Origin: a virus
Lineage: Duplodnaviria; Heunggongvirae; Uroviricota; Caudoviricetes
IMG/VR virus record: IMGVR_UViG_2526164630_000014
Location: 1 to 13,507 of that record
Strand: one strand, 5' to 3'
DNA length: 13,507 nucleotides
Shown: piece after piece, positions 4,640 to 5,987 of the stretch
How the letters are laid out: each line of letters starts with the position of its first letter
Numbering within the stretch: position 1 is the stretch's first letter
Notes under the pieces: model-generated
Database searches by the model: none
The model's input: only the letters and a program-made list of their open reading frames with translations
Told to the model about the DNA's origin: nothing
Translations under genes and position numbers: made by a program

Positions 4640-5497
4640 TTATCGTTTATTTCTTTGATGTTTCTTTGCAGACTCAGCTTGAGTGTTTCCATACCTGCGT
4701 TTACCGCTATTGTTTTTTCCTCTAGGCTTGCCTTTTTTTCGATCTTCCCACCAGTCAGGTGCCGGGTCTGGCTCAACATGTAAAGCATCGGCAAGTCCTG
4801 ATATCAAGCTGTATGACTGAACTCCATCAATGTGCTCTGACAGTGATGGGGTAACATTCTGTCTTAGTGGATCAAGAATAAAATCAATACCTTTAATTCT
4901 GGCGTGTTTGGCGGCAGGCACAAAGTCTGAGTCCCCAGCAACAAGGACAATTACATCAACAAGTTTTTCATAAGCTAAAGTCGTGATATCCATCCCTAGC
5001 TTGATATCAACTTGTTTTTGTTTGATGTCATAGTAAAAATCATCATTTGTCAGTTCATCCCATTTTTTCGTTCCTTTCATCAGAGCATCAAGGGAGAATG
5101 TAGTTAGTTGCCATCGCTTATTATCAACAAGATTCCCTAATCTTAAGGCTGTTTTTCGAGTTTTTCTTAACTCTTCATGCAGCTCCGTTCTCAGAATATA
5201 TGATTTTTCGAGTTTGAAATTCTTGCGACCAGGCGTCTTATTGCCAGGCTCAGGAAGTGGAAGGCGTGTTTGAATGTCGAGTGGTGGACAGTCATAGAAG
5301 TAAATTCTATAAAGCTCAAGCGGTTCCCTACGTTCTTGTGATTGACGTTTTCCATTAAGATGGGAAAGAACCATTGACCATATTACTTTCATTATGCATT
5401 GCGCAGTCAGTTCATGCTCGGCGAAGTGTTTACGATGCGTAGCATGAACACGCTGCATGAAAAAACCCGCATCAATTAAAATTGCTGCTTTCTTCAT
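4640..5497 (-). CDS. NYN/LabA-like (PIN-fold) predicted nuclease with basic C-terminal tail
   Basis: 285-aa ORF. N-terminal MKKAAILIDAGFF (beta1 Asp), RIYFYDC, and VDVIVLVAGDSDFVPAAKHARIKGIDF match the NYN/LabA-like signature. C-terminal 40 aa are Lys/Arg-rich (EDRKKGKPRGKNNSGKRRYG...KKHQRNKR). Family call from motif recall. Confidence 0.7.
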   Translation of the reverse strand: MKKAAILIDAGFFMQRVHATHRKHFAEHELTAQCIMKVIWSMVLSHLNGKRQSQERREPLELYRIYFYDCPPLDIQTRLPLPEPGNKTPGRKNFKLEKSYILRTELHEELRKTRKTALRLGNLVDNKRWQLTTFSLDALMKGTKKWDELTNDDFYYDIKQKQVDIKLGMDITTLAYEKLVDVIVLVAGDSDFVPAAKHARIKGIDFILDPLRQNVTPSLSEHIDGVQSYSLISGLADALHVEPDPAPDWWEDRKKGKPRGKNNSGKRRYGNTQAESAKKHQRNKR

Positions 5498-5515
5498 AAG
5501 AGTCCCAAAAAAAAT

Positions 5516-5568
5516 AGCCCAGAGCCGTTATGCAGATATTAACAATTGTCTGCGAACGGGGCTGGGCT
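5516..5568. promoter_or_regulatory. Long imperfect palindrome between the 113-aa gene and the NYN gene
   Basis: AGCCCAG...CTGGGCT outer arms with partially matching inner arms around a central ATTAACAATT; a second short hairpin GTTGAC-tgtgcc-GTCAAC lies at 5591..5608. Function unknown. Confidence 0.3.
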
Positions 5569-5620
5569 TGGTTTAATTAATCTATGCCAAGTTGACTGTG
5601 CCGTCAACATAAAACTTACT

Positions 5621-5645
5621 TCCTATCACCCAAACGTCTCTTCAC
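5621..5645. repeat. Direct repeat copy B (TCCTaTCACCCAAACGTCTCTTC), immediately 3' of the 113-aa gene
   Basis: About 24 of 26 nt identical to copy A at 5991..6016; on the coding strand it reads GAAGAGACGUUUGGGUGAUAGGA directly after the stop codon. Confidence 0.6.
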
Positions 5646-5987
5646 TCATCCGAAGAAGCAGCAATCCGGGTCAGCACGCACAAGCTCAAGCGCATCAGTC
5701 AGCGAAAGTTCAGTACTGTACTGATGCCATTTCATATCCTTCCGCATCCAATAGATTTTCCATCTATCCAGAGAACGTATGTACTTGATTCTTGCTGATG
5801 GCAGGATGTTTGTTTCACCTGGGTTGCCCTGCCACACGGGGCGCTGTTCGCCGATATCTATCGTTTGGTCATTGATGCTATAAACAATATCCAGTTCATT
5901 GCGGATATGTTCAGGCGGCCTTATGCTTTCAATGAATTGGTGAACTTCTTTTTTGACCGCTTGATATTCAAGGTCAGTGAACGCCAT
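5646..5987 (-). CDS. Hypothetical 113-aa protein (first gene downstream of cI; partner of NYN gene)
   Basis: ORF with strong SD (GAGGAGGA) 3 nt before the ATG; no transmembrane segment evident; no family recognised. Co-oriented with cI and the NYN gene. Confidence 0.65.
   Translation of the reverse strand: MAFTDLEYQAVKKEVHQFIESIRPPEHIRNELDIVYSINDQTIDIGEQRPVWQGNPGETNILPSARIKYIRSLDRWKIYWMRKDMKWHQYSTELSLTDALELVRADPDCCFFG

Follow-up and report, generated by a model that had tools for sequence, protein, structure and literature searches.

In the immunity region of a lambdoid prophage (IMG/VR record IMGVR_UViG_2526164630_000014, Caudoviricetes), two genes on the minus strand follow the cI-type repressor gene, one encoding a DUF3024 protein of 113 amino acids and the other a predicted ribonuclease (RNase) of the NYN family of 285 amino acids. 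We analysed positions 1 to 13,507 of this record (hereafter the window) and suspect that the stretch at 4601-5987 consists of two independent cassettes, of which the one with the NYN gene is an RNA-protein module in which a short structured RNA is the cognate partner of the nuclease. We put the probability of this reading at about 0.4. The NYN cassette is a self-contained unit, made up of a promoter, the RNA, a terminator, the NYN gene and a second terminator. It is widespread, as covariation and linkage statistics indicate, and, with a function that we infer, it is a more interesting object than the two-gene system that had been proposed in an initial annotation of the same DNA.

The NYN gene (4640-5497, minus strand) is preceded by a sigma-70-like promoter (TTGACG, 17 nucleotides, TAGATT; 5607-5579, minus strand) and then by a conserved structured RNA (5568-5507, minus strand) that has the form of an intrinsic terminator, with a hairpin and a run of eight U residues. 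The hairpin (5568-5516, 53 nucleotides) has three parts and the apical loop CAAUUGUUAAUA, and the U8 tract (5514-5507) ends nine nucleotides before the NYN start codon (ATG at 5497). The minimum free energy of the hairpin is -25 kcal/mol (z -5.63), and none of 200 shuffles was as stable. Given the promoter-like site and the hairpin with its U8 tract between the genes, both of which the initial annotation had overlooked, the DUF3024-NYN stretch comprises two transcription units, and since there is no room for a promoter after the U-run, NYN can be translated only from transcripts that read through the terminator of the RNA. At its far end the cassette is closed before the left operator and promoter (OL/pL) by an intrinsic terminator (4601-4632, minus strand), in which a hairpin at 4632-4611 with an 8-bp GC-rich stem is followed by TTCTTTGCCT (-14.5 kcal/mol, fold z -2.45). 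This terminator had been recognized in the initial annotation, where it closed a single operon of both genes. The closure stands, whereas the one-operon picture does not hold in the form given there, and the supposition that the nuclease is simply driven from pRM is not supported, given its own promoter-like site and the terminator-forming RNA in front of it.

The same kind of element was found before NYN homologs of very distant bacteria, and we distinguish two classes. Class B, which includes the window, comes from Enterobacterales, Pasteurellaceae and Pseudomonas, and is represented by an alignment of 19 sequences and a covariance model, R2. Compensatory changes occur in 12 of its 16 pairs, and 96% of the cells are paired, as compared with 84% in shuffles, none of which (0 of 500) reaches the observed values; a shift of the partners by one to three columns lowers pairing to about 35%. 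The apical loop CAAUNGUUA is conserved in this class. Class A comes from Proteobacteria, Acidobacteria, Bacteroidota, Elusimicrobia, Verrucomicrobia and others, and is represented by covariance model R1. It has an 8-bp outer stem, the conserved unpaired segments CAGUAMGC and GCCGANCC, an inner hairpin that varies and a T-run, with compensatory changes in 12 of 15 pairs, again matched by none of 500 shuffles. Given that R1 is not significant on the window hairpin (12.8 bits, E 0.52), the separate model R2 was needed for class B; it scores the window element at 82.7 bits (E 1.4e-19) in the sense orientation and at 26.1 bits in the antisense orientation. We considered an attC-like or other DNA-level hairpin and rejected it, since four features (the T-run, the promoter, the G-U pairs and the unequal model scores of the two strands) indicate an RNA made from the strand of the gene.

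The promoter is also a recurrent part of the arrangement. A comparable promoter at a conserved distance was found in 34 of 62 distinct homologous upstream regions, as compared with 10% of shuffles, and its -10 hexamer ends approximately 10-15 nucleotides before the first stem. The internal loop of class A (5'-CAGUAC / 5'-CGANC), which is absent from the class B of the window, presumably resembles a bulged-G (sarcin-ricin / loop-E) module. If it is such a module, the RNA could be a decoy of the natural RNA target of the nuclease. Searches of Rfam 15 gave no match for the window element at E values up to 10, none at the gathering threshold in 11 loci with strong R1 hits, and none in E-value mode in the loci L023 and L293. 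Our literature search found no RNA motif upstream of NYN genes and no NYN protein with an RNA antitoxin.

We followed the link between the RNA and the NYN gene from both sides, using 80 DUF3024 and 80 NYN phage loci from IMG/VR, 80 species-representative NYN genome loci, and a scan of metagenome contigs with the class-A pattern. An R1 or R2 match lies directly upstream of NYN, on the same strand, in 59 of the 80 species loci. R2 matches 66 of the 80 NYN phage loci with 60-83 bits, namely those with RNA of the enterobacterial, Pasteurellaceae or Pseudomonas type, and it gave no hit with E below 0.2 across 698 kb of NYN-free cI/DUF3024 loci. The metagenome scan gave at least 120 loci, 107 of them with enough downstream sequence. 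Among the matches listed, an open reading frame (ORF) of the NYN family follows in 70 of these 107, at a median of 21.5 nucleotides after the T-run, and when only motifs with a well-paired outer stem are counted (also 70), 52 precede an NYN ORF and 18 do not. The linkage of the RNA to NYN is thus strong and not exclusive. An RNA that is conserved, covarying, absent from Rfam and coupled to very common NYN genes provides a concrete handle on these genes, whether it turns out to be a cis-regulatory RNA of a new kind or half of a new RNA-antitoxin/RNase pair.

The protein encoded behind this RNA is an NYN/LabA-like protein with a PIN fold, predicted to be a ribonuclease. It passes the Pfam NYN model PF01936 (36.8 bits against a cutoff of 24.2, E 6.8e-9), with a match restricted to residues 158-205, and it matches phrog_5783 over its full length. 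In an AlphaFold model (pLDDT 86.6), the three layers (alpha/beta/alpha) of a PIN-like fold can be superposed on NYN domains of known structure. Residues D9, D164, D170, D189 and D191 are invariant in an alignment of 33 NYN homologs with 41-86% identity, and fall within the motifs IDAG, QKxVDxKLGxD and GDSDF. The hallmarks of an NYN/LabA-like nuclease noted in the initial annotation are therefore borne out by the Pfam match, the invariant aspartates and the fold of the model. The protein is laid out as a core of approximately 150 residues, an insertion of approximately 80 residues and a Lys/Arg-rich tail (residues 250-285), which is predicted to be disordered and varies among homologs. The insertion and the basic tail set it apart from MARF1 (5yaa) and the LabA-like VPA0982 (2qip), whose solved NYN domains share 16-18% sequence identity with it. 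The protein belongs to a distinct family of 250-290 residues (phrog_5783), which is found in bacteria and temperate phages and comprises 7035 clusters at 90% identity. A sequence search of the PDB with the window protein gave no match. HEC-09, an NYN candidate in Hma systems (bioRxiv 10.1101/2024.01.29.577857), is likewise an NYN/MARF1-like predicted RNase proposed to act in phage defence; its match to the window protein is weak and partial (E 2e-4, residues 155-200), and unlike the latter it has an N-terminal domain resembling a helix-turn-helix (HTH). The "NYN" of another paper (PMC12557735) is a codon library and irrelevant to NYN nucleases.

In the mechanism that we propose, the constitutive-looking sigma-70 promoter would start transcription a few bases before the hairpin RNA of approximately 60 nucleotides, and the outer stem with the U8 tract would act as an intrinsic terminator, leaving NYN to be made by read-through only. 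Given this dependence on read-through, much RNA and little nuclease would be expected per cell. The RNA may bind and restrain the NYN RNase, or it may set the NYN level. When an infecting phage shuts off host transcription, the short RNA would be lost, the RNase, presumably toxic, would be freed, and the infection would be aborted. The DUF3024 cassette would ride on the repressor transcript, tied to cI-type repressors and not to the nuclease. A defence or abortive-infection role for the NYN cassette is plausible.

Type III toxin-antitoxin loci (ToxIN, CptIN and TenpIN) have a promoter, a non-coding RNA, a Rho-independent terminator and an endoribonuclease gene, and are often found on mobile elements. 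The RNA-NYN layout is alike in its one promoter, its upstream RNA gene, its intrinsic terminator and a nuclease expressed by read-through, and this arrangement is conserved in homologs of the window cassette. PADLOC gave no ToxN-type match for the window NYN. We do not assign the cassette to the type III group, but by analogy it may work as these loci do. The logic closest to that of the proposed model is found in AvcID, where a small RNA (AvcI) located just upstream of the deaminase AvcD reportedly acts as the antitoxin and is lost on phage shut-off of host transcription. In ToxIN as in AvcID, the upstream RNA is reportedly short-lived and holds back an effector that is set free once infection stops transcription in the host. 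Its effector is a dCTP/dCMP deaminase and not an RNase, however, and the RNAs share no similarity.

We also considered the wider claim that promoter, hairpin, terminator and NYN form an undescribed RNA-controlled ribonuclease module of many phyla, working like type III systems but with another nuclease fold and a single structured RNA, which prophages deploy against phages. This we hold to be doubtful. If it were true, lambdoid prophages would be deploying the RNA-NYN module from the slot that corresponds to rexAB, thereby excluding other phages.

Several observations weigh against an RNA-restrained toxin. We found no tandem repeats in 4400-6100, where a single hairpin is present, whereas the antitoxins of known type III systems are tandem direct repeats processed by the toxin, and the window nuclease is NYN/PIN-like and does not have the ToxN/AbiQ/CptN/TenpN fold. 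HEC-09, a distant NYN relative and the only tested NYN candidate that we found in the literature that could be read, gave no protection from any phage that was assayed (10.1101/2024.01.29.577857). Many chromosomal NYN loci have no obvious mobile or defence context. Classes A and B of the RNA are linked to each other by position and architecture only, and the mechanism itself is drawn here from sequences and structural models. The 18 well-paired class-A motifs that lack an intact NYN gene downstream, three of which, among the matches listed, precede frameshifted NYN genes, point the same way. In metagenome contigs (L261, L293, L322, L348 and L302), well-formed class-A RNAs stand before genes for ORF6N, DUF3800, Bro-N, a Phd/YefM antitoxin and a GNAT acetyltransferase, all of which are typical of mobile or conflict-related regions, and therefore the RNA may be a more general leader element.

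Those unrelated downstream genes are also among the evidence for the main rival, in which the RNA works purely in cis, a leader or attenuator that keeps NYN low, and the NYN protein is an enzyme of RNA processing or turnover rather than a toxin. Modulation of read-through would then come from NYN itself, as autoregulation, from a host factor, or from a ligand that recognizes the conserved internal loop. The only transcript possible for NYN does carry the hairpin at its 5' end, directly next to the ribosome-binding site, and NYN homologs are found in varied chromosomal contexts in thousands of genomes, as such a role would allow. However, classic attenuators and riboswitches need an alternative anti-terminator, and here the outer stem is itself the terminator stem; given that transcription starts only a few bases upstream of the hairpin, there is no sequence from which an alternative structure could form. 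In addition, approximately 80% of the genuine-looking copies of the motif are tied to one protein family. We regard a cis-acting leader as possible, with a smaller but real chance of being the right account.

It is improbable that the hairpin is a mere strong terminator or insulator (a tImm for the cI operon) that is joined to a promoter and travels with NYN with no specific function of the RNA. The element does have the form of an intrinsic terminator, and in the window it would stop transcripts arriving from cI and DUF3024. A generic terminator needs no conservation of particular nucleotides, though, and in both classes it is the unpaired nucleotides that are conserved (across phyla in class A, and in the apical loop in class B), with the stems varying in a compensatory manner. 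The element is also present where the upstream genes are unrelated or run in the opposite direction.

The distribution of the two protein families separates the NYN cassette from its neighbour. NYN occurs in none of the 80 DUF3024 phage loci and DUF3024 in one of the 80 NYN phage loci, and no DUF3024 gene lies within 6 kb of NYN in the 80 species-representative loci. Among 5426 complete E. coli genomes, 74 have NYN, 227 have DUF3024, and nine have both genes adjacent; these nine represent one O121:H19 clone. Across phage and E. coli records, a DUF3024-NYN pair with 99.4% identity is confined to the O121:H19 Stx2a prophages (48 phage records and the nine genomes), Stx denoting Shiga toxin. A same-strand S24 repressor lies directly upstream in 75 of the 80 DUF3024 phage loci, as compared with 37 of the 80 NYN phage loci, and 36 of the loci with NYN behind cI have no DUF3024. 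In strain ETEC1738 and in phages E212, ev099 and EC.P3, NYN without DUF3024 comes directly after another cI, and DUF3024 without NYN follows cI in 933W, Min27, phage 86 and others, where a RuvC-like gene and the Stk kinase gene come next. Near-identical DUF3024 genes (>90%) follow at least four repressor clusters that are less than 70% identical to one another, and precede at least six alternative gene sets, or nothing. The DUF3024 and NYN modules have their homology breakpoints together within 5621-5645, shortly after the stop codon of DUF3024. NYN has no conserved protein neighbour of any kind, the best cluster being present in six of the 80 species loci.

DUF3024 and NYN are thus separable modules and not one system. 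The alternative, a single pRM-driven defence or toxin-antitoxin system of two genes with DUF3024 as sensor, regulator or antitoxin, could appeal to the adjacency and shared orientation of the genes in the window and the O121:H19 prophages, to a second, distant lineage (L193) that repeats the order cI, DUF3024, NYN, and to the listing of DUF3024 as a defence candidate in PADLOC, but it is largely refuted by a co-occurrence of approximately 1% in either direction, by NYN directly behind cI without DUF3024, by the many other cargos (or none) that DUF3024 precedes, by the promoter and terminator between the genes and by the breakpoints at the gene boundary, and we consider it most improbable. The DUF3024 and NYN proteins of L193 are 40% and 74% identical to those of the window, respectively, and we read this locus as two cassettes that may each prefer the same slot.

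The 113-amino-acid protein (5646-5987, minus strand) had been described as lacking a recognizable family and as a possible partner of the nuclease. The second description is not supported, given that the genes almost never co-occur, and the first is wrong, given that the protein is a full-length member of DUF3024 (Pfam PF11225, E 2.4e-31, residues 4-113), with matches to PADLOC PDC-S43 (PDLC05018, E 7.2e-42, residues 1-113) and phrog_3467. PDC-S43 is itself a computational defence candidate. An AlphaFold2 model (pLDDT 91) shows a small alpha+beta protein laid out as a helix, five strands and a helix, and a PDB sequence search with the protein returned noise only (E 0.48). The family has 1339 clusters at 50% identity, nearly all of them stand-alone proteins of 110-120 residues. 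The gene starts 60 nucleotides after cI, with no terminator in the gap and with a GAGGAGG Shine-Dalgarno sequence, and in 933W-type phages the level of the DUF3024 transcript tracks those of cI, the RuvC-like gene and stk (PMC10789677), which is consistent with co-transcription. Among the best 150 representatives the only informative fusion is a metagenomic protein of 254 residues (P0175), in which an XRE-type HTH is fused N-terminal to DUF3024. Such a fusion may weakly suggest that DUF3024 functions together with DNA-binding proteins of the repressor type. DUF3024 could help to maintain lysogeny or act on its own as an exclusion factor; our literature search found no paper on the function of DUF3024 and no functional test of PDC-S43.

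Both genes occupy a position that is known for exchangeable cargo. On the minus strand the order is cI, the DUF3024 gene, the NYN gene, the terminator, OL/pL and N, and the operator words and pL-like promoter place both genes between cI and OL/pL, exactly where the initial annotation had them, co-oriented and directly downstream of cI. Its view of this rexAB-equivalent slot as a cargo hotspot is also well founded; the BstA paper documents it as such (PMC8585504, citing Degnan 2007), and the Stk kinase in the same slot of 933W matches the PADLOC defence family PD-T4-6. RexAB of lambda, BstA of BTP1 and Stk share with the NYN cassette the position between cI and N and the lysogen-side orientation, but they have no homology to the window genes by Pfam and PADLOC. 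In particular, neither window protein resembles RexA or RexB, as had been noted before, the matches in Pfam, PADLOC and PHROG being to NYN and DUF3024 only. Unlike the other slot cargo compared, the NYN cassette does not rely on pRM, having a promoter and an RNA of its own. The immunity region of lambdoid and Stx phages can be described as a repressor, a repressor-linked DUF3024 gene, and then an exchangeable cargo position filled by Stk/PD-T4-6, NYN or others.

The window as a whole comes from a lambdoid, Stx-phage-like prophage and represents its early region. The cI-type repressor (6048-6752, minus strand, 234 amino acids) has an HTH and a Peptidase_S24 domain (Pfam E 3.8e-16) and matches phrog_4, transcriptional repressor. 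At the far edge of the slot, N (3749-4132, minus strand; Pfam N_peptide E 9.8e-16, phrog_271) is the antitermination protein and first gene of the pL transcript. OL, with operator words and a promoter-like site, spans 4381-4497, and the pL-like promoter (TTGCCA, 17 nucleotides, TAAAGT) lies at 4409-4381 on the minus strand. Exact copies of the operator word ATGATAAAT occur at three positions (4392, 4417 and 6796) and copies with one mismatch at two, namely 4489, where the word reads AGGATAAAT, and 6819, on the minus strand. The right operator (OR) words at 6796-6827 mark the divergent pRM/pR region between cI and cro. The OL side is 97.8% identical to a stretch annotated as OL2/OL3 in GenBank GQ499358.

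Compared with public records, the stretch at 4400-6100 resembles immunity regions of the H-19B/ST2-8624 type on its OL side and the O121 Stx2a phages in its DUF3024-NYN part, and the window cI matches neither group beyond its last 50 bases or so. The stretch is found in full in no phage record and no complete E. coli genome, and coverage reaches 91% at best. The window is a further mosaic combination. In the O121 Stx2a prophage of locus L001, an Nmad5-family gene upstream of the immunity region (1347-3282) is split by an IS3-family insertion.

The remaining genes of the window include a YqaJ exonuclease (661-1308), RecT (1305-2090), a DUF2528 gene, a cro-like ORF (6866-7099), cII (7238-7537), and genes for NinB and Dam. 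An O-like replication protein of the HTH_36 type (7700-8497, plus strand) has a Gly/Ala-rich repeat, GGAGAARGGAGAARGGAGAALGGGAGAA, at approximately residues 108-135, and the DNA repeats that encode it might serve as iterons of the origin. In a Toprim/AAA_25 primase-helicase (8608-11514, plus strand, 968 amino acids), residues 379-634 or so are a Hint and LAGLIDADG homing-endonuclease insertion, making it an intein-containing replication protein.

Some copies of the NYN gene deserve comment in their own right. In RefSeq, the PGAP annotation splits the intact NYN ORF of 285 codons (4084-4941 in L001 and 3136-3993 in L002, corresponding to 4640-5497 in the window) into a 146-residue "NYN domain-containing protein" and an "incomplete" N-terminal pseudogene. 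The split is an annotation artefact, as translation gives one uninterrupted ORF, and the present analysis corrects this recurrent mis-annotation. It probably stems from a truncated copy that is found in about 200 O157:H7 genomes. In E. coli O157:H7 EC4115 (L364, 305338-305764), a cryptic prophage at tRNA-Thr has the promoter, the RNA and approximately the first 127 NYN codons directly behind a LexA-family repressor, the remainder of the gene having been cut off by IS1203, an IS3-family element. In Pseudomonas yamanorum (L010, 8509-8708), a C4 antisense RNA and its a1b1 target, which are immunity RNAs of the P1/P7 type, lie approximately 2.5 kb downstream of NYN, and this copy of the gene is therefore placed in a prophage.

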